A DNA stretch of 64,000 nucleotides from Patescibacteria group bacterium (GTDB lineage Bacteria; Patescibacteriota; Patescibacteriia; JAXHNJ01): NCBI GenBank assembly GCA_041649715.1, contig JBAZMP010000003.1, positions 167,690 through 231,689 of the forward strand. Direction: 5' to 3'. Positions 7,159 through 60,979 of the stretch are shown one piece after another; the stretch's first letter is position 1, and every line of letters starts with the position of its first letter. The notes under the pieces were generated by a model. That model saw nothing but the letters and a program-made list of their open reading frames with translations, ran no database searches and was not told the origin of the DNA. A program made the translations under genes and the position numbers.

Positions 7159-7344
7159 CTAAAATTTTATTCCGAAATGGTCGCCCCAAAATCGGAGGAA
7201 AACTAAGATAAGAGCCATGAGAAACAAGGCCCAAAACAGCTTTAGGAAATTAAAGCCCTTTTTCAAACCCTCTTTGACGGGATTATAAACCGGCCCCCCA
7301 TACTTTATCTTATCGCGGGCTCTTTGGTAATCGGAAAGCTTCAT
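7159..7344 (-). CDS. small membrane protein (61 aa), hypothetical
   Basis: Hydrophobic helix; overlaps rmuC stop by 4 nt (operonic). Confidence 0.35.
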   Translation of the reverse strand: MKLSDYQRARDKIKYGGPVYNPVKEGLKKGFNFLKLFWALFLMALILVFLRFWGDHFGIKF

Positions 7345-8399
7345 TCTTCTCCTTCTTTAGGCTTTTCTAATTCTATCGGCTCCACCCCGCCACCCGTACC
7401 AGCGATCTTGAATACATCCCTGTCAATCTTTTTAAACTCCTTATAAGCGGTGTTATAACTGCCCACCGCCGTGCCTAATTGGCTGCCTAATTTTTCCAGA
7501 TAAGAGTCAAAATTCAAAATATGCTTGCCTAAGACCTCCACGTTCTTTCTAATCTCCAGGGCCGACTCCTCAATCTGCAGCGCTCTCAACCCCTGCAAGA
7601 CCATCTGCAGATAGGCCATGAATGTGGTCGGCGAAACAATGATCACATGCTTTTCCTTGAAAGCGTAATCGATGAGATCACGGGTGGAAATCTTGACCGC
7701 TCCGACCTTGTTCACCAGCAGGTCGTAATAAATCGCTTCGGAAGGAATAAACATGAAGGCGAAGTCATAGGTTTTTTCGGCCGGCCGGACATACTTGGCG
7801 GTTTCGTCAATCCGGTTTTTTAAATCCTGTTTAAAAAGTTTTTCCAGTTCCTGGCGCCTTTCTTCATTATGTTCTTCAACAATCTTATTATAATTTTCCA
7901 GAGAAAACTTGGAATCCACCGAGATGATTTTATCTTTAATGAAAATAACCGCGTCCACGATTTCCCCGTTTTTGAACTTATACTGCATCTGGTAGCTTTT
8001 CGGCGGCAAAACGTTCTTTAAAACGGTCTCCAAATAATATTCCCCCAAAATCCCCCTTTGTTTGGGATTCTTCAAAATATCCTGCAAAGACTGCAATTGA
8101 TCGGAAAAATTCAATACCTGGCGGTTCGTCTCGTCTAATTTCGTCAGTTTTTCCGTCACCTCGCGGATTATCTGGGCATCCTGGCTGCGCTGGGCGGCAA
8201 ACATTTTCGTGGACTCGCCCATTTTATTGTCCAAAGTCCGGTTGATCTCACTGATCTGGTTCTGCAGCATCAAAAGAGACTGTTCATCTTTTTTAACCTC
8301 TCCCAACCCCTTGAGTTTCCGGGACAAAATAAAGTAAATAAAAACCGCCAAAAACACTCCCACGAGAATAACGCCGATAATTATTGACCATGTTTGCAT
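7341..8399 (-). CDS. rmuC: DNA recombination protein RmuC
   Basis: N-terminal TM helix, long coiled coil, conserved FMFIPSEAIYYDLL nuclease-like core of RmuC/DUF195. Confidence 0.75.
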   Translation of the reverse strand: MQTWSIIIGVILVGVFLAVFIYFILSRKLKGLGEVKKDEQSLLMLQNQISEINRTLDNKMGESTKMFAAQRSQDAQIIREVTEKLTKLDETNRQVLNFSDQLQSLQDILKNPKQRGILGEYYLETVLKNVLPPKSYQMQYKFKNGEIVDAVIFIKDKIISVDSKFSLENYNKIVEEHNEERRQELEKLFKQDLKNRIDETAKYVRPAEKTYDFAFMFIPSEAIYYDLLVNKVGAVKISTRDLIDYAFKEKHVIIVSPTTFMAYLQMVLQGLRALQIEESALEIRKNVEVLGKHILNFDSYLEKLGSQLGTAVGSYNTAYKEFKKIDRDVFKIAGTGGGVEPIELEKPKEGEE

Positions 8400-26957: not shown

Positions 26958-29900
26958 TTAGACCACAAAACCGATTCTTAGATCCTTTCCTTCAATTTTC
27001 AGGTCTTTATAAAAAGACAACTTCTCCAATTCTTCCTTTTTCCCCTCAATAATATCAGAGGCCAGTATCTCTTGCTTGAGTTTTTCCCCATAAACCGCCA
27101 AAAGTTTATCAAAAAATCCGGAGGCAGCGGCATATTTCAGCTTGATCCGGTTGCCCGGCGTCAATTTTGCTTCTTTACGCAAAGAATTTATTTGCCTTAT
27201 CAATTCCCTGACTATTCCCTCCTCCCTTAATTCATCGGTTAAAGTGATGTCGAGCGCCACCCAAAAACCGTAACTTTCTTTTACCTTGAACTCGCTACCT
27301 GCGGGTTTTGTTTTTCCCAGATGGATTTCTCTCACATTAAGCTCCTCGGCGATTATTTTTAATAATTTCTCGTCTAGATTCTTCGCGTTGGAAACAAGTG
27401 AAGTTAAAGGCTGCCGGACCTTAAAACCGTTTTCCGCCCGCAAGGCATGACCGGCTTCGACTATCTGCCGAACCAAAATCATGTCATTTATCACCGACTT
27501 TTCGATCTCCCTGTCTAACCCCGGCCAATCAGCTAAGTGTACCGACTCCTTCACTCCGCCGGTGGCCTGATAAAGTTCTTCCGCCAGAAAAGGCGTGAAA
27601 GGCGCCATCATCTTGCTCAATGTCAATAAAACATCCTCAAGCGTCGACAACGCTTCATTTTTTTCCGCTTCTGCGGCGCCCTTAAACCGGTTTCGGCTGC
27701 GCCGCAAATACCAGGTGGATAAATCATTGATAAAGACCTCCATCTTCCGGACCGCGTTCACTATCTCGTAATGCTCCAAATCTTTTGTCACTTCTTCAAT
27801 CAACAAATGAAGAGAGGTTAAAATCCAGATATCGAGGACATTTTTGCTTTCTATTGGCTTAACTTCGGTTCCGGCGTACATCTGGTAAAAACTTAAAACA
27901 TTAAAAAGAACCAAGAAGTTTTTCTTAACCACTGATTCTACGCCGGAAGCGTCAAAATTTTTGGTTTCACCCGGCTGATTCAAAGAATAAAAATACCAGC
28001 GGATGGCATCCGCGCCGAATTTTTCGAAAATCTCTTGCGGGTTTACGACATTGCCGCGCGACTTCGACATCTTCTGACCGTTTTTATCCAGGACCAAACC
28101 TAAGCAGATGACATTTTTATAGGCCGGACCTTTATCTAAAAGAGTGGAAATAGCCAAAAGAGTGTAAAACCAGCCGCGCGTCTGATCCATTGCTTCGGAA
28201 ATAAAATCCGCCGGAAAACCCGTCCCTTTATCAATCTTTTCCTTGTTCTCAAAGGGATAATGGACTTGAGCGAAGGGCATAGAACCGGAATCAAACCAGC
28301 AATCAATCACTTCCGGCACCCGCTTCATTTCCCCGCCGCATTCACAGAGAGCTTTTACCTGGTCCACAAACGGCCGGTGAAGATTTATTTCTTGTAATTC
28401 TGGATTTACGTAAAATACCCTTGGATCTGCCCCGGTTTTATGACCATAAATCTCCTTTATTGCCTGCGAAACGGAATAATGGCGCAAATAATCCGCGAAC
28501 ATGACAATCTGTGCCTGGTGAGTGACGCAAAGGACGTTATGCCCTTGGTATTTTTTGACTAAATTATCGGCAAAAACAACAATTCTTTTTTTAACGTCTT
28601 CAAACGACTCTCCGGCTTGGCTATGTTTTATCGTTAAAGCTTCGGGACTGGCCTTTTCCCGGTATGCCAAAAATCGGCGATAATCATGATCATTTTTAAT
28701 AAGCTCGTTATGGGTTTTTTCCTCCCATGACCCCTCAAATATTTCATTAAGATCCTTATCCTCAATAATTTTCACTTTCAGGGATCGATTGATTATTTCC
28801 GCTGTTTGTTTGGCCCTTAAAGTCGGCGAGGTAAAGATGATATCAATATTTTTTCCCGCTAACTGCTGGGCATAATTTTCCGCTTGTTTTTTGCCTAAGG
28901 CAGTGAGAGGATATTTATCCGGGGCCGAACTGTCAATCCCTTTTACATTTTTTTCGCTTTCGGCGTGGCGAACCAAAATCAATTTTGTCGGTTTTTCTGC
29001 CGCCTTTAGCCTTAATTCCTCCCGGGAACCGAAACACTGATATTTGTGACATTTTTCGCACTGCCAGACAGGCAAGGGCGTACCCCAATAGCGTTCGCGG
29101 CTGATAGCCCAATCTTTTACCTCGTTAATCCACTCGCCAAAGCGGCCTTCTTTAATATAGTCCGGCACCCAATTAATTTTTTCATTATTCTTTTTTAGCT
29201 TTTCTCGTAAAGCCGACATCTTAATAAACCAGGAATTCTTGGCGTAATAAAGCAGGGGCGAATCGCAGCGCCAGCAAAAAGGGTAATCATGGGTATATTT
29301 TTCCGTTTTATAAAGAAGATTTTTTTTCTTCAAATAATCGATGATCTCCTCTTCCAGTTTTTTATCTTTTACAAATCTCCCCTGCCAGGGTTTTACCAAG
29401 GAGTTAAAAATGCCATTCTCATCTAGGGTATGAATTTTCGGCAGGCCGATTTTCTCGCCTAAGTTATAATCGTCTTCCCCATACATCACGGCGGTGTGTA
29501 CCACGCCTGTTCCGTCTTCGACGGTGACAAAATCGGCGAGAGTCAAATAATAAGCCTTTTTGCCCCCTTCTTTTTCTAGATCAAGAAAATCAAATAAGGG
29601 CTTGTATTTTTTCCCTTCCAGCTCTTTTGCCGAGTACTCTTTTATCACCTCGTGATCACCCTGCAAAACATTTAACCGATCTTTGGCTAAAATAAGGAAC
29701 TCATTTCCCTGTCTGATTTTTACATACTTAAAGGACTCACCTAGGGCCAGGGCGACATTGCCCGGCAAAGTCCAGGGAGTAGTGGTCCAGGCTAAAACAA
29801 AAGTCCCGGGCTCATCAGCCAGTTCGAATTTAATATAAACCGAATCCTCGGTCACGGATTTGTACCCTTGGGCGACTTCATGCGAAGAAAGAGCCGTGCC

Positions 29901-30434
29901 ACAGCGCGGGCATTGGGGAACCACCTTATACCCCAAATACAATAATTTTTTATCCCAGACCTGCTTTAAGATCCACCAGACGCTTTCAATATAATCATTG
30001 TCGTAAGTGACATAAGGATATTCTAAATCCAGCCAAAAACCCAGACGTTTTGTCATTTCTTCCCATTCGGTTTTATATTTCCAAACATTTGAACGGCACT
30101 GATCATTGAATTTACCCAGACCGTATTTTTCAATCTGGGGCTTGCCGGAAATCTTAAGTTCCTTTTCCACTTCCAGCTCCACCGGCAATCCGTGCGTGTC
30201 CCAGCCGGCTTTTCGCTCCACGTAAAAGCCCCGCATGGTTTTGTAGCGCGGAATCACGTCCTTAAAGGCCCGGGCCAAAACATGATGAATGCCGGGTTTG
30301 CCGTTGGCGGTGGGCGGACCTTCAAAGAAAATAAAAGGATGACCTTTTTTCGTCTTTTCCAGGGTTTTCTTAAAAATATCCTTTTCTTCCCAGAATTTTA
30401 GGGTTTTCTTTTCTGCTTCCGGAAAATTTATCAT
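26958..30434 (-). CDS. ileS: isoleucyl-tRNA synthetase (type 2) with an inserted histidine-phosphatase (PGAM-like) domain
   Basis: HIGH PTANGKPGIHHV, editing domain, KMSKS KMSKSRGN, zinc knuckles WQCEKCHKYQC / CECGG; between them ~195 aa LILVRHAESEKN...VLCVTHQAQIV (RHG and second-His motifs of histidine phosphatase superfamily). Confidence 0.9.
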   Translation of the reverse strand: MINFPEAEKKTLKFWEEKDIFKKTLEKTKKGHPFIFFEGPPTANGKPGIHHVLARAFKDVIPRYKTMRGFYVERKAGWDTHGLPVELEVEKELKISGKPQIEKYGLGKFNDQCRSNVWKYKTEWEEMTKRLGFWLDLEYPYVTYDNDYIESVWWILKQVWDKKLLYLGYKVVPQCPRCGTALSSHEVAQGYKSVTEDSVYIKFELADEPGTFVLAWTTTPWTLPGNVALALGESFKYVKIRQGNEFLILAKDRLNVLQGDHEVIKEYSAKELEGKKYKPLFDFLDLEKEGGKKAYYLTLADFVTVEDGTGVVHTAVMYGEDDYNLGEKIGLPKIHTLDENGIFNSLVKPWQGRFVKDKKLEEEIIDYLKKKNLLYKTEKYTHDYPFCWRCDSPLLYYAKNSWFIKMSALREKLKKNNEKINWVPDYIKEGRFGEWINEVKDWAISRERYWGTPLPVWQCEKCHKYQCFGSREELRLKAAEKPTKLILVRHAESEKNVKGIDSSAPDKYPLTALGKKQAENYAQQLAGKNIDIIFTSPTLRAKQTAEIINRSLKVKIIEDKDLNEIFEGSWEEKTHNELIKNDHDYRRFLAYREKASPEALTIKHSQAGESFEDVKKRIVVFADNLVKKYQGHNVLCVTHQAQIVMFADYLRHYSVSQAIKEIYGHKTGADPRVFYVNPELQEINLHRPFVDQVKALCECGGEMKRVPEVIDCWFDSGSMPFAQVHYPFENKEKIDKGTGFPADFISEAMDQTRGWFYTLLAISTLLDKGPAYKNVICLGLVLDKNGQKMSKSRGNVVNPQEIFEKFGADAIRWYFYSLNQPGETKNFDASGVESVVKKNFLVLFNVLSFYQMYAGTEVKPIESKNVLDIWILTSLHLLIEEVTKDLEHYEIVNAVRKMEVFINDLSTWYLRRSRNRFKGAAEAEKNEALSTLEDVLLTLSKMMAPFTPFLAEELYQATGGVKESVHLADWPGLDREIEKSVINDMILVRQIVEAGHALRAENGFKVRQPLTSLVSNAKNLDEKLLKIIAEELNVREIHLGKTKPAGSEFKVKESYGFWVALDITLTDELREEGIVRELIRQINSLRKEAKLTPGNRIKLKYAAASGFFDKLLAVYGEKLKQEILASDIIEGKKEELEKLSFYKDLKIEGKDLRIGFVV

Positions 30435-45366: not shown

Positions 45367-46230
45367 TTAGTAACAGGTCAAAAGCGCTTTTTTCCGCTCA
45401 CAAATAACCTCACCATCTGTATCTGTCCTAAAAATACGCGCTCCGATTTTTTCCAATCTTTGTAAAGTAATCAAATGGGGGTGGCCGAAACGATTATTTT
45501 TTCCGACCTGGAAAACCGCATATGAAGGCGATAGTTGAGTTAAAAAGGGCGGACTTGAGGAATATTTTGAGCCATGATGCCCCACTTTTAGCACTTCAAC
45601 TCCGCTAATCAAATCGGCGGCTAACATCTCTTTTTCCTCTTCCGCCCGGCTGTCGCCGGTAAATAAAAAAGAGTAAGAACCGTCAATAAGTTCGGTGACA
45701 ATCGAAGTATCGTTTAAATTTTCAAACTTTTGGCCGGTTATATCCGTCAGGGGATATAAAGTTTTAAGATATGTATTTTCCCCTAAATTGAACCGGTCAC
45801 CGTTTACGGTTTTTTCCAAAGGAATCTTTTTTTCTTGAGTTACCCTTAACCAGTCCTGATAATCGGCTCCCGTATAATCAATTTGAGAATCAATTATTCT
45901 TTCAACCTTGTAACTTTTTAAAACTTCGATCAACCCCTGCAAATGGTCAGTGTGCGGATGCGTTAAGATCACTAACTCGATTTTCCGGTCCCAAAAAGGC
46001 AGATGCTTGCCCAAACCGGAGAGAACTTTTTTATCCGGGCCGCCGTCGATCAGGACATCAATATTACCAGGCGCTTGAATTAAAATGGCATCGCCCTGCC
46101 CGACATCTAAAAAAACCACCTTGACATTCCGGCTGTATTGGCTAAATAAAATTATTAAAAAAATTGAAATAACTAATACAATAACCAGGATTATAAAAGA
46201 AATTTTTTTGTAACTTTTCATATTTGACAA
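45367..46230 (-). CDS. ComEC-type metallo-beta-lactamase domain protein (separately encoded C-terminal module of ComEC/Rec2)
   Basis: N-terminal TM, VVFLDVGQGDAILIQ, HPHTDHLQG (HxHxDH), VGHHGSK motifs. Confidence 0.7.
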   Translation of the reverse strand: MSNMKSYKKISFIILVIVLVISIFLIILFSQYSRNVKVVFLDVGQGDAILIQAPGNIDVLIDGGPDKKVLSGLGKHLPFWDRKIELVILTHPHTDHLQGLIEVLKSYKVERIIDSQIDYTGADYQDWLRVTQEKKIPLEKTVNGDRFNLGENTYLKTLYPLTDITGQKFENLNDTSIVTELIDGSYSFLFTGDSRAEEEKEMLAADLISGVEVLKVGHHGSKYSSSPPFLTQLSPSYAVFQVGKNNRFGHPHLITLQRLEKIGARIFRTDTDGEVICERKKALLTCY

Positions 46231-46346
46231 CTTATTAATGAGATGATACTTTTTAAGTCTCGGTTATTCGTCTTTAGAGCGTTCCTGCCGCTCTTTAAAA
46301 TATAACATAAATCATCGTTTTTTTCTTTTTCTTGAGGAGGCCTAAG

Positions 46347-47447
46347 ATGAATATCACGTTGACGTTAGTGAAGGCTGACATTGGTTCTCTCGGCGGCCAT
46401 ATCAAGCCATCGGAAAAACTCCTGGCCACGGTCACGGACATCATTGACTCATCCTACCAAAGCGACAATCTTCTTTCCTACCGCGTCACCCACACGGGTG
46501 ACGATATCGCGATTCTTATGGTTCACCCGCACGGGGTAAACAACGTCCACATCCACGGCCTCGCGCTGGAAGCCTTCAAGGCCGGTACCAAGATAGCCAA
46601 GAAACAGGGGCTGTACGGCGCCGGCCAAGATCTGCTGAAAGACGCTTTCAGCGGCAACATCAGAGGCATGGGTCCGGCTATCGCGGAAATGACTTTTGAG
46701 GAAAGACCCAACGAGCCTTTCCTGGTCTTTGCCGCGGACAAGACCGACCCAGGTGCCTACAACCTCCCCCTCTATCTCGGCTTTGCCGATCCCATGCACT
46801 GCTCCGGTTTGCTGCTGAGCGAAAAAATGGGCCAGGGTTTCAAATACACGATTATGGATGTCTCCCACACCGAGGGTGACCGCGTCATCGAACTCAATAC
46901 TCCGGAAGATCTATACTTATTGGCGGCTCTCCTGCGGGACAACGAGCGTTTCGTCGTCGAGACAATCAACTCACGGGCCACCGGCGAAATCGCGGCCGTC
47001 GTTTCCACCACTCGTCTCCACAACATTGCCGGCAAATACACCGGTAAAGACGACCCCATCGCCATCGTGCGCGTCCAGGGCGCTTTCCCGGCCACCGGCG
47101 AAATCCTTTCACCCTATACCCTCGGGCATTTTGTCGCCGGCTTCATGCGCGGCAGCCACAACGGACCCCTGATGCCAGTCAAGCAAAACAGCTCTATTTC
47201 CTTTTTCGACGGACCGCCGGTGGTCAGCTGCGCCGCTTACTGCGTTAAGGAGGGAATACTCACCGAAGCGGCGGATACCTTTGACCATCCCTTCTGGGAT
47301 TATATCCGGCATCAAATCTCCCAGAAAGCGCTGGAAATCCGCCGACAGGGTTTTTCCGGACCGGCCATGCTCGATATCAGAGAACTTGAGTATGGGGGGA
47401 TTAAGAACGTACTTGCCACGCTAGAAGAGCGGTTCAAAGTCCGCTAG
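46347..47447 (+). CDS. fbp: fructose-1,6-bisphosphate aldolase/phosphatase (class V, archaeal-type bifunctional FBPase)
   Basis: N-terminus NITLTLVKADIGSLGGH (cf. TISVIKADIGGxxGH) and overall length ~370 aa; GGAGG SD 7 nt upstream; ~58% GC. Confidence 0.7.
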   Translation: MNITLTLVKADIGSLGGHIKPSEKLLATVTDIIDSSYQSDNLLSYRVTHTGDDIAILMVHPHGVNNVHIHGLALEAFKAGTKIAKKQGLYGAGQDLLKDAFSGNIRGMGPAIAEMTFEERPNEPFLVFAADKTDPGAYNLPLYLGFADPMHCSGLLLSEKMGQGFKYTIMDVSHTEGDRVIELNTPEDLYLLAALLRDNERFVVETINSRATGEIAAVVSTTRLHNIAGKYTGKDDPIAIVRVQGAFPATGEILSPYTLGHFVAGFMRGSHNGPLMPVKQNSSISFFDGPPVVSCAAYCVKEGILTEAADTFDHPFWDYIRHQISQKALEIRRQGFSGPAMLDIRELEYGGIKNVLATLEERFKVR

Positions 47448-47457
47448 AAAAATCGTA

Positions 47458-48948
47458 TTATTTGCCGTCTACCGCAGGTAGACGGCTTTTTATAAGTTTA
47501 AAAAATGCAAACATTATTAAATAAATTAAAAAGATAATCAAAACATTTAAATGACTGAAGCTTATAGCCGCCCAGGAATGATTGGCAAAAAAATGACATA
47601 GGCTAGTGATGTATTTTAATAATAAATAACAAAGCCAGAATAAAAGTTGGCCGATGGGCCAAAATATCAGGGAAACAAATGTGGCCGCCAAACCTAAAGT
47701 CAAAAGCAGGGAAAAAATCGGCAAGATCAAAACATTAGCCAGCGGCGAGATCAAAGAAATAATCTTGAAGTTATAAATAATGATCGGCAGAGTAAAAACC
47801 TGGGCAGACAAAGTCATAACCAACGAGCTTTTTATTTCTAAAAGTTCCGGGAGGAATTTCAATATTTTCTCCAACCAAGGCGAAATATATATTAAACCCA
47901 AAACCGCCAAAAAAGAAAGCTGAAAGCCGACATCGTGCTTTAAAAGCTGGGGGTTAAATAAAAGCATTGCCACGGCGGCTAAGATTATGGCATTAAGACT
48001 GTGGTTTAACCTGCCCAAAGACATGGCCCACAAGACCAAAAAAGCCATAACAGACGCCCTGACCGCCGAAGCCGGCAAGCCGATCAATACGGTAAATAAA
48101 AAGAGAACCGCGCTCGCCAGCCAAAAAGCCTGTTTTCTTCTTAAGCCGATTGCTAAAGAGAAATTCATTAAAAGCCCGGCGATAATGGTCATGTTCTGGC
48201 CGGAAATCGCCATGATATGCGTGATCCCCGTGCGGGAAAAATCTGCGGCGACCGCGGCCGGCAATTTTGTCTTAATGCCAAACGACAAGGCTGCAAAAAA
48301 TGAGCTTTCCGGCTCCGGTATTCCCCTTTTTATGCTTTCGGCGAATTTTTCTTTCACGGAGTAAATTACTTCTAAAAAAGCATTGCCCTGATAAACGGCC
48401 AATTTTTCAATCCTGGGCTTATAACTGACCAGGTATATTTTGAAACGGGCCAAATAAGCTGGATAATCAAAATCTTGGATTTTTTCCGGCCTTTGGATTT
48501 TACCGCTCACTTTAACCAGATCACCGTATTGATAGACCGGATTCAAATCGCTGGTAATCAAAAAATTCAGGCCGATCAATTCAGGAGGCCCTAACTTAAT
48601 TTTCACTTTGATTTTTCTTATCTGTTCGCTTTCCTCGGTTTCCTCGTAAACCAAACCGGTGATTTCAATTTTTTCCTTTAACAAATCTTCCGGAATAATC
48701 GGCTCTTCGGATATGCTCAATGTATAGCGGCCCAGCCCTAATATGATAAATAAAAAACAAAAACCTGCGATTTTTATTTTTCGCACCGGCCAAAAAAATA
48801 TCAAGATAATTAAAGTCAGAACAAGCGCCATGAATATATAATAAATGGAAACGGCGAAAAATGACCGGCCGGCAATTCCGGCGATAAAGGAAATAAGAAA
48901 TAAAAGAAATATTTTTGATTTAGAAAAATAATTCATTAATAAGCTCAT
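47458..48948 (-). CDS. comEC: ComEC/Rec2 competence membrane channel, N-terminal (DUF4131 + competence domain) module
   Basis: Polytopic membrane protein with conserved MAISGQNMTIIAG and SAVRASVMA competence-domain motifs; 5' end overlaps tnpA stop by 29 nt so true start may be an internal Met. Confidence 0.7.
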   Translation of the reverse strand: MSLLMNYFSKSKIFLLFLISFIAGIAGRSFFAVSIYYIFMALVLTLIILIFFWPVRKIKIAGFCFLFIILGLGRYTLSISEEPIIPEDLLKEKIEITGLVYEETEESEQIRKIKVKIKLGPPELIGLNFLITSDLNPVYQYGDLVKVSGKIQRPEKIQDFDYPAYLARFKIYLVSYKPRIEKLAVYQGNAFLEVIYSVKEKFAESIKRGIPEPESSFFAALSFGIKTKLPAAVAADFSRTGITHIMAISGQNMTIIAGLLMNFSLAIGLRRKQAFWLASAVLFLFTVLIGLPASAVRASVMAFLVLWAMSLGRLNHSLNAIILAAVAMLLFNPQLLKHDVGFQLSFLAVLGLIYISPWLEKILKFLPELLEIKSSLVMTLSAQVFTLPIIIYNFKIISLISPLANVLILPIFSLLLTLGLAATFVSLIFWPIGQLLFWLCYLLLKYITSLCHFFANHSWAAISFSHLNVLIIFLIYLIMFAFFKLIKSRLPAVDGK

Positions 48949-49519
48949 TATTTAAATATAAATGAGGATATCTCGAATATTTGCCGGGCAAACCATGCTT
49001 TTCATAATTATATTTGATGTATTGAAGAATGTTATACAATCGTTTTTCGTTATCAATGATGCGGAAGTTGTAACGCGATTGCCAAAGCTCGGCAACATGA
49101 ATTTGGCGTGAAAAATTTCCTTTAATAGACTGCATCAAATCGGAAATGGTGTATCCGCGCGGGCTAGAAAGCCCGCGCTGTTTTTCTGGAAAAAGCCCGC
49201 GCTGTGGTAACGAGGAAGACTCACGCCGTATGTATGGGTAAAAACCGTGCGATGCAAAACAAAAAAAAGTCTCACCTTCCGTCCCACAGCGCGCCTTTTC
49301 TAAGGCGCGCCCGCCGTTCTTCACCAATAAATGCAAATGATCGGGCAAAATACAAAAAGCGTACAAATTAAAACCCTTTATCCTGCCTGCTTCAATGATA
49401 ATTTGATACAGAAGCTGGGCGTATTTTTCATTATCAAAGAACCAAAATCGTTCTTCGATATTGGTGGTGATAAAATATGGCAAAATAACCTGGTATATCC
49501 TTCTTTGGGTCATAAACAA
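48920..49519 (-). mobile_element. tnpA: IS200/IS605-family (HUH Y1) transposase gene tnpA with ~57-codon in-frame insertion
   Basis: HUH motif LPDHLHLLV, C-terminal ELWQSRYNFRIID...YIKYNYEKHGL with catalytic Tyr; 199 aa versus ~140 typical. Confidence 0.7.
49155..49312. repeat. GC-rich palindromic (REP/MITE-like) element inserted in-frame within tnpA
   Basis: Hairpins CGCGGGCT-agaa-AGCCCGCG (+T5), direct repeat AGCCCGCGCTG x2, inverted GCCCGCGCTGTGG / CCACAGCGCGCC, CGCGCC-ttttctaa-GGCGCG; local GC ~60% within ~38% GC gene. Confidence 0.6.
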
Positions 49520-49593
49520 AAAAGCGGCCTTCTCTAAGCCACCGTATTATCTGTCTATATACTAATTTAAAATAGGATAAAAGTCAAACAATT

Positions 49594-50689
49594 TTATCTC
49601 TCTTTGTGGCGCAGATAGCTTTCAATAAAAGCGTCTAGTTCGCCGTCCAAAACTTTGTTCACGTCTTGAGTCTCATATTTCGTCCGGTGATCCTTGACCA
49701 TCTTATAGGGCTGCATGACATAGGAGCGGATCTGGTTGCCCCAGGCCGCTTCGTGAAATTCGCCTCTGATTTTTTGCTTTTCTTTTTGCTTCTCTTTTTC
49801 TTCCAACATCAAGAGCTTACTCTTTAATATTTTCAGGGCCATTTCCCGATTTTGCTTCTGGGAGCGCTCGTTCTGGCAGGAAACGGTGATCTTGGTCGGC
49901 AAATGGACGATCCGCACGGCCGAATAGGTTGTCTGCACGCTCTGGCCGCCGTGGCCGGAAGAAAGGAAAGTATCGATGCGCAGGTCCTTCGGGTCAATTT
50001 TTATTACTTCAATTTCGTCCAGCTCCGGAATCACCTCAACTAGGGCAAAAGAGGTGTGACGCATTTTTTCCGCGTCGTAAGGGGAAATTCTTACCAAACG
50101 ATGGACGCCATTTTCTGATTTCAAAAAACCAAAAGCATAATGGCCGATAATTTCAAAAGTAACGCTTTTTATGCCGGCTTCATTACCCACGGATTTATCT
50201 AATATTTTGACCAGCCAGCCTCTTTTCTCGCAAAACCTCAAATACATACGCAGCAAAATCGCCGCCCAGTCCTGGGCGTCCACCCCGCCGGTGCCGGCAT
50301 GAATCGCCACTATGGCATTCCGCTGATCGTATTTGCCGGCCAACAAAATAAAAAACTCCAGTCTATCGAACTGCTGCTGCAATGCCTTGTATTTTTTCTC
50401 AATATCCTTTTCTAGAGAATGGGCTTTTTCTTTGATTGCTTCATGAGACAAATTTAGCAACTCTTCAATCTCCTGATGGATATTATCCCAAGTGGCGATT
50501 TCTTTCTTTAACTCTTCAAATTGCCGGCTGATTTTCTCCGCCCTCTCCCTATCCTGCCAGAAATCTTTTTCCGCGACCTGGTATTCAAAATCTTTAAGTT
50601 GATCTCTTTTCTTTTCTAGGTCAAAGAAACCCCCTCGCCTGCTCGATTTTCAGGCTCAATGACTTTATTTGCTTGACGATATTTTCCAC
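49594..50689 (-). CDS. prfB: peptide chain release factor 2, with programmed +1 frameshift (join 50689..50624, 50622..49594)
   Basis: Frame-0 leader (GTG)ENIVKQIKSLSLKIEQARGFL-TGA with internal SD AGGGGG then CTT TGA C shift site; downstream frame gives RF2 (SPY variant of SPF motif, GGQ as GHGGQSV). Confidence 0.8.
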
Positions 50690-50718
50690 AAGGATTCATT
50701 TATTTATTAATGAATGAA

Positions 50719-50775
50719 TATTATCACAAAAGAGGGCATTTATCAAATTATCCCTCTGAAATTTTCTTTTTCACG
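50719..50775 (-). terminator. terminator hairpin after two-component/ABC operon
   Basis: AGAGGG-loop-CCCTCT stem followed by T-rich tract on minus strand. Confidence 0.4.
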
Positions 50776-50790
50776 TCCAACCTAAAATGA

Positions 50791-51939
50791 CTACAGATCA
50801 ATCACAAACTCCGTTCCTTTTTTATTCTCCGGAATTCTCGCGCTAATCTTCCAGCCGTGGGCTTCCACTATTTCTTTAGCAATAGCCAGGCCTAAGCCCA
50901 AACCGCCGGTCAGCCTATTTCTTGATTTTTCCAGGCGGAAAAACCGCTCAAAAATATCCTGCAAGTGTTCCGGCGGTATGCCGACCCCGTCATCGGCAAA
51001 AATTATTTGCTTCTCATCGGCAAAAAGAGTGATATTCTGCGCTTTTGAATAGCGCAGAGCATTGTCAAAAAGATTAGTGAATACCTGGGACAAAAGCACC
51101 GCGTCCGCGTTAAGCGTGTAGTTTTCAGGTAACTCGGCTGCAAACGCCATTTTATTCTTTGCCAATTTCTCCTTATAAAAACCCATCAACTTATCTATAA
51201 TATCTTTTAAAATAATATCCTGGCGCTGAATTTTGACCGATTGGCTGCGCAAGACCGCATAATCCTGCAGGCCTTCGGTCATTTCCGTCAAACGATCAAC
51301 CTGCTCTTTTAATGACTTAATTCTCTCATTGTCTAATTTTAAAACCCCGTCCTGCAAGCCTTCCAATTGGGCGGTTAAAGAGGCTAAGGGCGTCCGCAAT
51401 TCGTGCGAAGTGTCGGAAATCAAATTTTTGCGCAGCTCTTCCACTCTTTGAAGTTCCGCCGCTAGACTGTTGAATTCCTGAATAATGGCGTTAAATTCCG
51501 CGCTTTCATTCTCATCCAGACGCAGCTGGTAATGACTCTGTCTTAGTTTTTTCAAACCGCCGCTTAATTTATTAAGGGGTTTGGTTACCGTGCGGGAAGT
51601 CAGATAGCCAATTCCGATCGCCCCTAAAAAAGCGGCTAAACCGATAATAATCAGGGAATTTTCGAAACGCGTCCGGAAATGCTCCCCCGGCGTCAGAAGT
51701 TCCCCTTTTTGGGGTCCTGGAAAAATGAAAAAAGGATCATCGGAATACGGCATCCTTTCGGGGGGAAAAATGTTAGGTCCGGTAAAAAGGCCGTAAACAT
51801 CAGTAAAAATCCTTTCTCCGCGGCTCATGGCGAAAATATTCACAAAAATTAAAAGACTGGCTACCAACAATATAATCAGAAGAGCGACTTTAAAACCGAT
51901 TTTATTAATATATTTAAGAAAATCCTTTATTTTATTCAT
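50791..51939 (-). CDS. sensor histidine kinase (2 TM, HisKA + HATPase_c)
   Basis: H-box SHELRTPLASL, N/G boxes FDNALRYS, DDGVGIP, GGLGLGLAIAK. Confidence 0.8.
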   Translation of the reverse strand: MNKIKDFLKYINKIGFKVALLIILLVASLLIFVNIFAMSRGERIFTDVYGLFTGPNIFPPERMPYSDDPFFIFPGPQKGELLTPGEHFRTRFENSLIIIGLAAFLGAIGIGYLTSRTVTKPLNKLSGGLKKLRQSHYQLRLDENESAEFNAIIQEFNSLAAELQRVEELRKNLISDTSHELRTPLASLTAQLEGLQDGVLKLDNERIKSLKEQVDRLTEMTEGLQDYAVLRSQSVKIQRQDIILKDIIDKLMGFYKEKLAKNKMAFAAELPENYTLNADAVLLSQVFTNLFDNALRYSKAQNITLFADEKQIIFADDGVGIPPEHLQDIFERFFRLEKSRNRLTGGLGLGLAIAKEIVEAHGWKISARIPENKKGTEFVIDL

Positions 51940-52601
51940 AAATTATATTTATAGCCCGTGCCAATGACGGTTAAAATGTATTTGGGGTTTTGGGAATCAT
52001 CCTCAATTAATTTCCTAAGCGATTTAATATGGGCGTCAATCGTCCTTTCCATCGCTTGCCGGCTAGAACCGTCGCCGTCAATCGCCTCCAATAAGGCCGG
52101 CCGGGTAAAAACCTTGCCTGGCTGCCGGATTAAAGCATTGAGGATTTTAAATTGCGTGGTGGTCAAGATTATTTCCTGGTCACCTTTTCTGGCGATCATT
52201 TTTTCTTCGTCAAGCGCTAACCCGCCGGCCCGTGGCACCGACACCAATGGCTGACGTAATCTGGCCTTCACCCGGGCCACCAGCACTTTTGGCGAAAAAG
52301 GTTTTTTAATGTAATCATCCGCGCCGATCGTCAAGCCTTTTAGCTCGTCGGGTTCCTCAATCCTGGCCGTCACCATAATGATCGGCACTTTTGATTTCTG
52401 CCTGATATTCCGACAAACCTCTAGACCATCCCGGTTAGGCAAATTTAGATCCAAAATCACCAGGTCAAAAGTATCGTTAAATTTCACCATGGCCACTTCT
52501 CCGCTCCCTGCTTCGTCCACGCTAAAACCGGCAAGTTCCAGATATTTTTTCATAACCTCGCGGATGGATTCTTCGTCTTCAACTATTAATATCTTGCTCA
52601 T
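51936..52601 (-). CDS. OmpR-family response regulator
   Basis: Receiver domain ILIVEDEESI...DLVILDLNLP, winged-helix C-terminus. Confidence 0.85.
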   Translation of the reverse strand: MSKILIVEDEESIREVMKKYLELAGFSVDEAGSGEVAMVKFNDTFDLVILDLNLPNRDGLEVCRNIRQKSKVPIIMVTARIEEPDELKGLTIGADDYIKKPFSPKVLVARVKARLRQPLVSVPRAGGLALDEEKMIARKGDQEIILTTTQFKILNALIRQPGKVFTRPALLEAIDGDGSSRQAMERTIDAHIKSLRKLIEDDSQNPKYILTVIGTGYKYNL

Positions 52602-52622
52602 ATTCTGTCTTATTTAATCCTA

Positions 52623-53291
52623 TTACCTGTCCGAGGTTATTTTACCATCTTTGATAATAATCGTCTTGTCCGCGTATTTCTTCACATAATCAGAGTGGCT
52701 GATCAGGATAATTGTTTTATGATGTTTTTTGTTAAGCTGGCCTAAAAAGCCGATTATTTCCTCTCCGCTATGACTATCCAGATTGCCGGTCGGCTCGTCC
52801 GCCAGGATAATTTCCGGGTCGTTAACCAGGGCTCTCGCGATGGCCACTCTCTGCTGTTCACCGCCGGAAAGCTTGCTCGGCAGATGATCAGCGCGGCCCT
52901 CCAAACCCACCGGCTTCAAAGCCTCGATGACTCTTTTTTTATCGTGTTTCGTCCGCTTGGCCATCACCGCTTCGACATTTTGAGCCGCGGTTAAGGTGGG
53001 TATCAGATTAAAATTCTGGAAAATAAAACCGAGGTGCTCGCGCCGGAGTTTAGTCAGCTTGCCATCACTGGCTTTTGTTAAATTAAGACCTAATACTTCA
53101 ATCTCTCCTTTGTCAGGCCGGTCCAGGCCTCCCAATAGCTGCATCAGAGTGCTTTTACCTGAACCGGAAGGGCCGATGACCGCCAAAAATTCCCCTTTTT
53201 CTATCTCCAGATCAACTTCATCCACCGCTTTAATAATCTTTGTCCCCTGCTGAAATATTTTTGAGATTTTTTTCGCTTTGATAATAGGCAT
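52623..53291 (-). CDS. ABC transporter ATP-binding protein (MacB/FtsE-like)
   Basis: Walker [10 protein letters not shown], signature [15 protein letters not shown], Walker [12 protein letters not shown]. Confidence 0.85.
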
Positions 53292-53306
53292 GTCAATATT
53301 TTTAAT

Positions 53307-54965
53307 TTATTCAAGGTGCCGCAAGGCTTCCTGCGGTTTCATTTTTGACGATTTAAGCGCGGCGAGACTGCCGGCCACAATCGCGCCGACCAGCGCGACC
53401 AAAGTGCCGAGCAGCAAAATAGAATAATCCAGGGCGATTTTTAAAGGAACGGAAGTAGTCACGCCCGCGTTTTCCTCTGTACCCATAAACCGCCGGACAA
53501 AACCAAAGCCGCCGGGCCCGCCGATATCACTTGTCTGACCAATGGTCGCGGTAAGAGAAATATTAAAGTGATTTAAAAGAACGATCGCCCCTAAAGCCAA
53601 ACCCAGGCCCAAAGCGGCGCCAATCACTCCGATCACGATATTTTCCCCGATAATCTGCCGGACAATCAAAGAATTTTTCCAGCCAATCGCCTTTAGTGTG
53701 CCGATTTCCCTCACCCGTTTGTTAACCGAAAAAACAGTCAGCAGGCTGACAATGATGAAAGAAGCGATTACGACGATTATGGTCGTTACTCCGATGAATT
53801 TGTTGGTCAGATTGGCGGCGCTGACCAGGCTGCCCGTCACTTCCCTGGCTGTATCAGATGAATCCGTCACGGTCGCGCCGGTAAAAGCGGACGAGAGTTT
53901 TTCGCTGGTCTGCGCCACGTCTTTGGCGTTGGCAGCCTTGACCAGCATGACATTGATCCGGCTTTCCCGGCCGGCCAGTTTTTGCAAATCCGCCAAAGAA
54001 AGATAAAGATCCGCCGTGTTGGTGTAAAGTTTCGGCGTCACCAGGCCGACCACGGTTAATTCCTGCTTGGCCAGAGTGATTTTATCGCCCAGCTTGATAC
54101 TGTTTTTATCCGCGTAGGACTGGTTGACCACGACCTGGTTTTCCCCATTGAAATAACTACCGCTGGTGATTTGGTCCGGTAAAATCAAACCGATATCGGT
54201 CTTAGTCGTGTCCACGCCGGCCACCGTAAAATTAGTCGTGGTGATATCCGTGGAAATCGCTCCGATATCCTGCTTATAGGTGCGGGTGGGAGCGGTAAAG
54301 CGGAATGTCATGCTGCGGAAACGTTCCGGCATGGCGTTTCTCTCCGCCTCGCGGACATATTGCCGGCCTTCTTCAGAGCGCGGATCAATGCCTTTGGCTT
54401 TAAGTTCGTTTTCCGCCTTCGTCCGGGCGGCGTCCACGGCCGCTCTTTCCGCGTCCGTCATCTCGGCTATCTCTTGGTTCACTTCAAACTGCTCCCCGCC
54501 CGTGGTAATTTCCGCCGTCACCTGGGGGATCTTTCCCTCCTGATGAGTAACATTCAAAATAAGGCCGGCCGCGGCGTTGGCCACCAGACTTGAATCCAAT
54601 TTAGTTATTTCCGCCGCGTCATAAGTCAAAAGCGTGCCCGGCAAAAAAGAATCACTGGTAAACTGGTCGCCGGGATTGCCCAATTTGGAGAGGTCAGTCG
54701 AAATCTGATTTTCTTTCATCATGTCCGCACGGGTGGTTTCATCCAAACTTTCTATATTGTCCTGATTGACCGTCCGGGTGACCATGATGTCCGTGCCGAC
54801 ATTCTGCAGAGGATTCAAGACTTTGTCCTGTTCGGCCGACAAGCTCTGGGAAAGAGAAAGAATCGTGATGATAATGGCGCTGGCCATGGCCAAGCCCAAA
54901 GATACCGTCAAAGTCTTTCCCCACCGCCGAGTCAATTCAGCCCATAAATAACGCAGATAAAACAT
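53307..54965 (-). CDS. ABC transporter permease, FtsX/MacB type with large extracytoplasmic domain
   Basis: N-terminal TM, ~300-aa extracellular region, C-terminal FtsX 3-TM bundle. Confidence 0.75.
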   Translation of the reverse strand: MFYLRYLWAELTRRWGKTLTVSLGLAMASAIIITILSLSQSLSAEQDKVLNPLQNVGTDIMVTRTVNQDNIESLDETTRADMMKENQISTDLSKLGNPGDQFTSDSFLPGTLLTYDAAEITKLDSSLVANAAAGLILNVTHQEGKIPQVTAEITTGGEQFEVNQEIAEMTDAERAAVDAARTKAENELKAKGIDPRSEEGRQYVREAERNAMPERFRSMTFRFTAPTRTYKQDIGAISTDITTTNFTVAGVDTTKTDIGLILPDQITSGSYFNGENQVVVNQSYADKNSIKLGDKITLAKQELTVVGLVTPKLYTNTADLYLSLADLQKLAGRESRINVMLVKAANAKDVAQTSEKLSSAFTGATVTDSSDTAREVTGSLVSAANLTNKFIGVTTIIVVIASFIIVSLLTVFSVNKRVREIGTLKAIGWKNSLIVRQIIGENIVIGVIGAALGLGLALGAIVLLNHFNISLTATIGQTSDIGGPGGFGFVRRFMGTEENAGVTTSVPLKIALDYSILLLGTLVALVGAIVAGSLAALKSSKMKPQEALRHLE

Positions 54966-60254: not shown

Positions 60255-60455
60255 TGATTAAATCCTTTCGACCGAAGGCTTTTACTTAAGGTATCCTGGC
60301 TTACAGAGGATTGGCTCATCTTTCCCTTCCCCCCAACCTCCTTCCTAGACGGAAAGCGTTAGAAGTGGTTTAAAAGACTGGCTTCTCTGTTTACAGTGAC
60401 GGGATCGCGCCGGATTCACACCGGACTTCCCTTTTTCTTGGTCTTAACTTTCAAC
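60255..60455 (-). promoter_or_regulatory. cobalamin (AdoCbl) riboswitch with terminator-type expression platform
   Basis: Minus-strand RNA reads AAAAAGGGAAGTCCGGTGTGAATCCGGCGCGATCCCGTCACTGTAAACAG...GTAAGCCAGGATACCTTAAG (B12-box) followed by AAACCCT-loop-AGGGTTT-T7 terminator and SD AAAGGA before DUF4430 ATG. Confidence 0.7.
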
Positions 60456-60472
60456 CAAGAAATATTAAATTT

Positions 60473-60979
60473 TTAATATTCGATGCCTTTTCGGGCCCTT
60501 ACTCCCTGATTGAAGTAATGCTTGACGGCCCGCATTTCTGTGACTAAATCCGCTTGTTCAAGTATCTTACCACAGGCGCCTCGGCCTGTCAAAATAATTT
60601 CTGTGGATAAAGATTTACCCTTGATAAGCTTTAAAATATCCGCCGGGGCAATTAACTTGAGTTTGGCCGCGACATTTATTTCATCCAGTATCACCAGGTC
60701 AGATCTTCCTTCTTTGACCATCCGGCCGGCATAAGCCAGGGCCTCACGCGCCGCTTTCCGGTCTATGGCGCTCGGCCTGCTAAAATTAACAAAAGCCCGC
60801 CGGCCGAATTGTTTGACGGTTATGTTTTTGAATTTTTTTAACGCTTTGACCTCGCCAAAATCCCCTTTTTTCATGAACTGGATCAGGCAGACTTTTTTCC
60901 CCTGGCCCAAGGCCCTTAAGGCCTGCCCTAAAGCGGCCGTGGTCTTTCCCTTGCCGTCGCCGGTATAGACCTGGATCAT
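60473..60979 (-). CDS. btuR: cob(I)yrinic acid a,c-diamide / cob(I)alamin adenosyltransferase (CobA/BtuR family)
   Basis: [37 protein letters not shown] P-loop region. Confidence 0.8.
   Translation of the reverse strand: [168 protein letters not shown]

Follow-up and report, generated by a model that had tools for sequence, protein, structure and literature searches.

How has a gene for an enzyme of gluconeogenesis come to lie between the two genes that encode the competence protein ComEC in a genome of the Patescibacteria? The question is raised by a 64-kb stretch of DNA (hereafter the window), which is part of a 235-kb contig of the metagenome-assembled genome (MAG) of a Patescibacteria group bacterium (ENA ERZ27247363). 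In this stretch, fbp, which encodes a fructose 1,6-bisphosphate (FBP) aldolase/phosphatase, is located on the plus strand between a ComEC channel gene and a gene for a ComEC-type metallo-beta-lactamase (MBL) nuclease, both on the minus strand. The observation itself is real: as the preliminary description of this DNA had it, the three genes are separate open reading frames (ORFs), all of them intact, with fbp between the comEC halves. The best explanation as a whole, to which a probability of roughly 0.8 is assigned, is that ComEC is naturally encoded by two genes in this group, and that a cassette of ~1.27 kb carrying fbp in the opposite orientation is present in this lineage only, most likely as a result of horizontal gene transfer (HGT). 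The elements involved are the following (nt, nucleotides; aa, amino acids; TM, transmembrane; FBPase, fructose 1,6-bisphosphatase):

45367..46221, minus strand: ComEC-type MBL nuclease gene (284 aa; matches to Lactamase_B and to the C-terminal part of TIGR00361)
46222..46346, plus strand: upstream region of fbp and, on the minus strand, new 5' flank of the MBL gene (without counterpart in relatives)
46347..47447, plus strand: fbp, FBP aldolase/phosphatase or class V FBPase (366 aa; PF01950 and NF041126)
47458..48948, minus strand: ComEC channel gene, comEC_N, with DUF4131/OB fold and Competence TM domain (492-496 aa)
47464..47491, plus strand: intrinsic terminator of fbp, inside the 3' end of comEC_N (hairpin followed by TTTTT; 10-bp stem with 7 GC pairs)
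46222..47491, plus strand: the whole cassette proposed to be inserted (~1.27 kb, boundaries +/- ~10 nt; junctions compared in L006, L007, L008, L090, L091 and L094)
48920..49519, minus strand: gene of the RAYT-like Y1 (HUH) transposase family, overlapping the start of comEC_N (syntenic in relatives without fbp)

The argument for an insertion is carried by the comparison of gene order in relatives, and not by composition. Six relative contigs were compared, namely those listed above for the cassette (L090 being represented by L089/L090). In five of them the ComEC_N protein is 69, 65, 53, 51 and 44% identical to that of the window; the remaining contig was retrieved by its MBL half (65% identity). 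Without exception, the MBL gene comes next after the channel gene on the same strand, with no fbp between them. The two genes overlap by 14 nt in both L006 and L007, by 22 nt in L008, by 26 nt in L091 and by 17 nt in L094, and they are 2 nt apart in L089/L090; such overlaps suggest that the translation of the channel and MBL genes is coupled in these organisms. Where the contigs are long enough, the neighbourhood has also been kept, with the order (HtrA)-prfB-glmS-RAYT-like gene-comEC_N-MBL gene on the upstream side and, downstream of the MBL gene, a gene for a protein of ~600 aa (SPFH/Band_7 where Pfam matches), one of ~400 aa and an FG-GAP gene of ~1080 aa. Because fbp is absent and the two comEC genes abut in all the relatives, a single insertion in the lineage of this genome is the most parsimonious history. 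The insertion of fbp between the comEC modules proposed in the preliminary description is therefore lineage-specific, and an arrangement of split comEC with fbp shared by relatives, which would have pointed to an ancestral state, appears in none of the six.

The preliminary description considered two ways in which fbp could have come to its place, either by splitting comEC or by exploiting a natural split, and it is the latter that has turned out to be correct. It had also been suggested to check whether related genomes have a fused comEC and lack fbp at this site; fbp is indeed absent from the site in six of six, but comEC consists of two genes in them. Among the best 120 homologues of the channel half, all lengths lie within 420-541 aa and the only domains are DUF4131 and Competence, with no MBL domain; the best 120 of the MBL half each stand alone as a protein of 240-306 aa, in most cases ~285. 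The sources of these best homologues of both halves are labelled Patescibacteria, Falkow-, Moran-, Buchanan-, Kerfeld-, Uhr- and Parcubacteria. An exhaustive HMMER search with the MBL half was run against 1.84 billion cluster representatives (50%-identity clusters), and the nearest 150 clusters were examined: ~139 are stand-alone, and 10 exceed 600 aa, nine of these with a C-terminal MBL domain, as in a fused ComEC. In a Falkowbacteria relative on a more distant contig, the MBL gene is not even adjacent to the channel gene, and there is no fbp. Judged from these sequences, the two-gene ComEC is a large and old architecture and the norm in this part of the Patescibacteria. ComEC proteins without a fused Lactamase_B domain (the 'DC' profile) have been reported as common by Pimentel & Zhang 2018 (PMC6299819), and in the parts of that paper that were consulted no discussion was found of an adjacent nuclease gene acting in trans. 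A literature search on split ComEC in Patescibacteria returned nothing specific.

The two products of the window jointly account for a whole ComEC. The channel ORF (47458..48948) matches the Competence profile PF03772 (E=2.9e-57) over profile positions 1-268 of 270 and DUF4131, the N-terminal OB fold (E=4e-15); no MBL or nuclease domain was found in it by Pfam and NCBIfam profile searches. The MBL ORF matches Lactamase_B (E=5e-13) and the C-terminal positions 411-663 of TIGR00361 ComEC_Rec2 (E=3.5e-39), and it aligns to the solved beta-lactamase-like nuclease domain of ComEC 9ic4 (E=4e-34). Its metal-binding motif, HPHTDH (HxHxDH type), is located at residue 88. As the channel protein aligns to approximately residues 38-501 of the solved full-length ComEC 9vc6 and the MBL protein to residues 513-783 of the 801-aa ComEC 30bt, both proteins together correspond to one complete ComEC. 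The equivalog cut-off of TIGR00361 (190 bits) is reached by neither half (84.6 and 134.5 bits). Compared with the ComEC/Rec2 proteins of that family, of the Bacillus subtilis type (DUF4131-Competence-Lactamase_B), the likeness thus extends over the whole protein, including the HxHxDH motif and the OB fold, whereas the difference lies in the division into two polypeptides, of which the nuclease is anchored by a TM segment of its own. That the MBL module has a TM start of its own had already been noticed, and the protein does hold a single N-terminal hydrophobic helix (residues 7-25). The position of its start had to be corrected from 46230 to 46221: the gene most likely begins at ATG 46221 rather than at TTG 46230, which would add three residues, because the resulting length of 284 aa agrees with all relatives; in an exact-protein look-up, a match was obtained for the ATG-start version and none for the TTG-start version.

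According to the proposed history, the channel and MBL genes would originally have been co-directional and overlapping by a few codons, and the cassette, made up of fbp with a promoter-like region and strong ribosome-binding site before it and an intrinsic terminator behind it, would have entered their junction in the opposite orientation in this lineage only. The anatomy of the locus can be followed from end to end. The segment 46222..46346 has no counterpart in relatives, where the two comEC genes overlap or nearly abut. Besides a promoter-like site at 46273-46301 (TTTAGA-17-TAAAAT), there is a small hairpin in it (AGAGCG-N7-CGCTCT), and the ribosome-binding site of fbp, GAGGAGG (46334-46340), stands 6 nt before the ATG start codon at 46347. 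At the other end, 16 nt past the fbp stop, there is a terminator formed by the hairpin GCCGTCTACC-GCA-GGTAGACGGC followed by TTTTT, which folds at -18.4 kcal/mol (z=-5.0). Read on the opposite strand, this same hairpin supplies the nine C-terminal residues of ComEC_N (SRLPAVDGK) together with the stop codon; in the relatives, ComEC_N stops about nine residues before this point, right after the last TM helix. The terminator hairpin would therefore have taken the place of the 3' end that the channel gene had before, so that the overlapping junction appears to have been replaced through the insertion and a new tail of foreign DNA to have been added to the channel gene.

No mobile-element gene is found in the insert, which holds fbp alone, and an Rfam search of it returned no known RNA element. 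The RAYT-like gene was considered as part of the insert and discarded, as it is present in relatives without the insert. An imperfect flanking repeat, TAT[A/G]AAAAG (8/9), was considered as a target-site duplication or microhomology and was also discarded, since it was matched in 206 of 500 shuffles. Entry by transformation and illegitimate recombination is a reasonable guess only. In one cultivated Saccharibacterium, comEC has been found to be needed for natural transformation (PMC10633639).

The fbp product matches PF01950 from end to end (E=1e-154, 515.6 bits against a cut-off of 25, profile positions 2-361 of 361) and exceeds the cut-off of the NCBIfam equivalog NF041126 (527.4 against 520 bits); the N-terminal motif LVKADIGSLGGH, on which the identification had first been based, is present. 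In class V FBPases, a single active site serves both as a Schiff-base aldolase and as a Mg-dependent phosphatase, as described in structural papers from 2010-2011. In the alignment with ST0318 of S. tokodaii, D11, H18, D52, D53, Q95, D132, Y229, K232, D233 and D234 are all identical. Of these residues, Lys232 is presumably the Schiff-base lysine and Tyr229 the catalytic tyrosine (GKYxGKDDP), and D11, H18, D52/53, Q95, D132 and D233/234 are taken to be the Mg ligands. Judging by these residues, the enzyme is intact and looks functional, and the same working would be expected as for the solved class V FBPases (3R1M and 1UMG from Sulfolobus tokodaii, 3T2B from Thermoproteus neutrophilus), which it matches over the full length with the aligned catalytic and metal positions kept. 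In contrast to these, its host is known from a Patescibacteria MAG and is neither an archaeon nor a thermophile. The crenarchaeal structures are also more distant in sequence (~320 bits) than the best database matches (~600-630 bits), and the nearest sequences (70-77% identical) come from mesophilic anaerobic bacteria and DPANN archaea. The predicted activity should convert triose phosphates into FBP and then into fructose 6-phosphate, an irreversible gluconeogenic step. Seven kb from fbp, the window holds a gene of the inositol-monophosphatase family (PF00459, 38196..39005, minus strand). Some members of this family have FBPase activity.

Regarding the source of fbp, its protein was compared with the 5.8 billion entries of a protein database. 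Apart from itself, the closest matches are 77, 75 and 73% identical, and below these three extends a large flat cloud at 67-72%, with thousands of homologues at ~70%. This cloud includes Thermodesulfobacteriota, Syntrophia-like Deltaproteobacteria, Zixibacteria, Ignavibacteria, Bacteroidales, Aminicenantes, Krumholzibacteria, Planctomycetota and Aenigmatarchaeota (DPANN). The earlier characterization of the enzyme as typical of archaea and deep-branching thermophiles was therefore overstated: the family does occur in archaea, here of the DPANN type, but it is widespread in anaerobic bacteria. On the evidence of these sequences, 'archaeal/thermophile-type' is a historical label and not a phylogenetic oddity. 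In a neighbour-joining tree, the FBPase of the window forms a clade with P0002 and P0003 with 100% bootstrap. The contig of P0003, the sole sister contig that could be read, has 67-68% GC and carries genes for an H+-PPase and an NAD synthase; that of P0004 has 57% GC and carries IspH and a Kdo-kinase-family gene. Neither contig is Patescibacteria-like, and neither has a comEC near its fbp homologue. The phylogenetic check suggested for the FBPase has thus given a firm closest clade with a readable sister that does not resemble Patescibacteria, but deeper nodes without support.

Two GTDB genomes labelled as Patescibacteria were found to contain fbp, L059 and L084. L059 (DATKWS010000113.1) was rejected as a Patescibacteria fbp, being probably mis-binned: its GC content is 60%, and its products include an ECF sigma/anti-sigma pair, a TPR-GT2 glycosyltransferase, a patatin and a metal-resistance protein. 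L084 (Moraniibacteriota UBA12116, 35% GC) was judged a convincing case. The site differs in it, the neighbours of fbp being a hypothetical gene and the gene for the CCA-adding enzyme, so that fbp does not stand beside comEC in that genome. The FBP aldolase/phosphatase is consequently rare but not unique in the phylum. As far as the sequences indicate, fbp of the window was most likely acquired horizontally from a GC-richer bacterium outside the Patescibacteria, and it has perhaps been partly ameliorated since. HGT has been described as shaping Patescibacteria metabolism (PMC12455944), and a literature search found no paper naming an FBP aldolase/phosphatase in Patescibacteria or the candidate phyla radiation (CPR). 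The present case resembles other transfers of central-carbon genes into these bacteria in that a single metabolic gene with outside affinity occurs in a streamlined genome. It differs in that the integration point is resolved to ~10 nt against six relatives and that the gene has its own expression signals.

The composition of fbp had been put forward as a sign of HGT, and this has been borne out only in part. The gene is the extreme of the window, with 55.6-55.7% GC (not the ~58% given earlier) and a GC content at third codon positions (GC3) of 0.69, the highest of the 44 genes of the window (z about 2), whose means are 46% GC and a GC3 of 0.54; the comEC halves, with 39% GC, are among the lowest. 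Nevertheless, the distribution is continuous, and the same pattern is seen in relatives without fbp. The proposed check of GC and codon usage over 46347..47447 likewise found GC and GC3 at the window maximum but an unremarkable codon-usage distance. High GC is weak evidence here because native neighbours are also GC-rich, in relatives too, and the composition is thus compatible with a recent foreign origin, to which it lends weak support and no proof. Across the window, GC varies from gene to gene between 34 and 56% and GC3 between 0.33 and 0.69. This heterogeneity is conserved between orthologues of the window, L008 and L091, with comEC and the RAYT-like gene low and the SPFH, hypothetical and FG-GAP genes high; therefore, HGT calls based on GC are unsafe in this clade.

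Several observations weigh against the explanation of a horizontally acquired cassette inserted in this lineage. In terms of origin, the tree has only 35% and 3.5% support at the nodes deeper than the three-member clade, L084 carries a 70%-identical fbp whose GC3 is like that of its host, and the flanks of fbp show no similarity to those of its closest homologue, L003. In terms of composition, the codon-usage distance of fbp reaches only z=1.5, native genes (the SPFH, hypothetical and FG-GAP neighbours, purA, IMPDH and ClpB) have 50-55% GC, with 50-53% for the native neighbours, and a low-GC comEC next to high-GC downstream genes is also found in relatives without fbp. As for the insertion, neither a significant target-site duplication nor significant terminal inverted repeats were detected at the ends of the insert, and the terminator hairpin, which might have been a REP-like element tied to the RAYT-like gene, is unique in the window. 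The nearest relatives free of the insert are only 65-69% identical in ComEC_N, which makes the timing coarse; the sequence upstream of the isolated MBL gene offers no convincing candidate for a promoter or ribosome-binding site; and the two assemblies that contain the locus may share underlying reads.

Different histories have to be weighed against these data. The idea that the insertion physically split a formerly fused comEC draws on the few fused proteins among the more distant homologues, the 10 long clusters among the nearest 150 mentioned above, but its probability is close to nil, as the close relatives already have two genes, in different frames and overlapping or abutting, and the best homologues of each half stand alone. 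If, on the other hand, fbp between the comEC genes were ancestral and had been lost in relatives, the small number of contigs compared, the closest of them 69% identical in ComEC_N, could have hidden it. This is very unlikely, because the overlapping or abutting genes of all six would demand repeated precise deletions, each restoring a coupled junction; moreover, the terminator-encoded tail of ComEC_N is absent from all of them, and the protein database contains no other fbp above 77% identity. An assembly or binning artefact, in which a GC-rich foreign fragment was joined into the contig, might be suspected from the metagenomic source and from the abrupt change in GC from 39% to 56% and back to 39%. 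Such an artefact is likewise very unlikely: the 235-kb ENA contig and a separately built Logan assembly of SRR8542065 have 0 mismatches over 11 kb, with both junctions covered and identical, and a chimera would need ends lying exactly between genes, three intact ORFs and an in-frame tail with a stop for comEC_N.

More weight has to be given to the possibility that fbp has long been present in the Patescibacteria, through vertical inheritance or through exchange inside the phylum, and was simply relocated into the comEC junction. The host-like FBPase gene of L084, the lack of support in the tree above the closest clade and the GC heterogeneity intrinsic to these genomes are all consistent with it. 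Such an origin is nonetheless unlikely, considering that the FBPase of the window joins P0002 and P0003 and not L084, that the GC-rich, H+-PPase-encoding contig of P0003 is not Patescibacteria-like, that the other Patescibacteria match is the probably mis-binned L059, and that the GC3 of fbp is the highest in the window. A horizontal transfer from a GC-richer bacterium outside the Patescibacteria would thus remain the preferred source of the cassette.

Under this preferred history, both comEC genes would stay intact but uncoupled, and ComEC is probably still made from them. For its expression, the MBL gene would now depend on a new start region or else on read-through running antisense to fbp. 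Such read-through is possible because the hairpin, on the comEC strand, is not followed by a U-run. A more far-reaching proposal is that competence has been rewired: with the channel and MBL genes parted by a convergent fbp and a terminator inside the channel gene, nuclease expression would depend on antisense read-through or on the new start region, uptake and degradation of DNA would be regulated inversely or jointly with gluconeogenesis, and the nuclease would work in trans. This proposal is quite improbable. If it were true, the uptake and degradation of DNA would be a source of nucleotides and C3 units tied to gluconeogenesis, and the locus would be a natural experiment demonstrating the action in trans of a ComEC nuclease that is no longer linked to the channel and the OB fold.

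Other features of the neighbourhood deserve mention. fbp is one of only five plus-strand genes among the 44 of the window. The gene glmS (glutamine-fructose-6-phosphate aminotransferase) stands between prfB and the RAYT-like gene in L008, L090 and L091, and it is absent both from the syntenic position (49520..50790 compared) and from the whole 64-kb window; its substrate, fructose 6-phosphate, is the product of the FBPase. The gene prfB (RF2, ~49594..50690, minus strand) contains the canonical programmed +1 frameshift (AGGGGG-TTT-CTT-TGA-C), which is ordinary and the reason why the ORF finder reported only 288 aa, and between HtrA and prfB there are genes for a two-component system and a MacB/ABC transporter (50791..54965). 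In this clade, the RAYT-like gene is kept directly upstream of comEC_N and overlapping it (48920..49519 in the window, 7151-7909 in L008, 7460-8017 in L089). Between its HUH motif and its conserved C-terminal part it holds a variable GC-rich palindromic segment, with hairpins at 49157-49181 and 49286-49310 in the window, which is longer and repetitive in L008. In L091, a PycTM (Pycsar effector-like transmembrane) gene occupies the RAYT-like position (7344-7874), and a heliorhodopsin gene lies 7 kb upstream.

Two further observations concern more distant parts of the window. An isoleucyl-tRNA synthetase-like ORF (26958..30434, minus strand, 1158 aa) contains a PF00300 His_Phos_1 domain at residues 485-657 (E=3e-38), flanked by the class-I catalytic match on one side (residues 11-481) and by further synthetase and anticodon-binding matches on the other (from ~768), which represents an unusual in-frame domain insertion. 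In addition, a cobalamin riboswitch (60274..60477, minus strand, 72.6 bits) is located between the BtuR/ribonucleotide-reductase genes and the DUF4430/DUF6580 genes, and the DUF4430-DUF6580 pair beside BtuR is also found in L090.

All the components of this locus belong to known families and the type of event, HGT of a metabolic gene into Patescibacteria, is known as well, and current understanding stands. Neat as they are, the co-option of a terminator as coding sequence of its neighbour and the uncoupled ComEC subunits represent no new principle. What the locus offers is a cleanly resolved case of a streamlined Patescibacteria genome gaining a central-carbon enzyme as a one-gene expression unit. 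According to CPR genome papers, phosphofructokinase (PFK) is often missing, and a Microgenomates genome paper notes that FBPase and PFK are both absent (PMC7143001); given these reported gaps, fbp could allow the synthesis of hexose phosphate from C3 compounds, and its product would supply hexose phosphate for envelope and sugar-nucleotide synthesis. With regard to ComEC, its existence as a channel and a separately anchored nuclease across a large part of the Patescibacteria matters for annotation, and it bears on mechanistic studies of a possible need for the nuclease and the OB fold to be joined in cis (PMC12455585).

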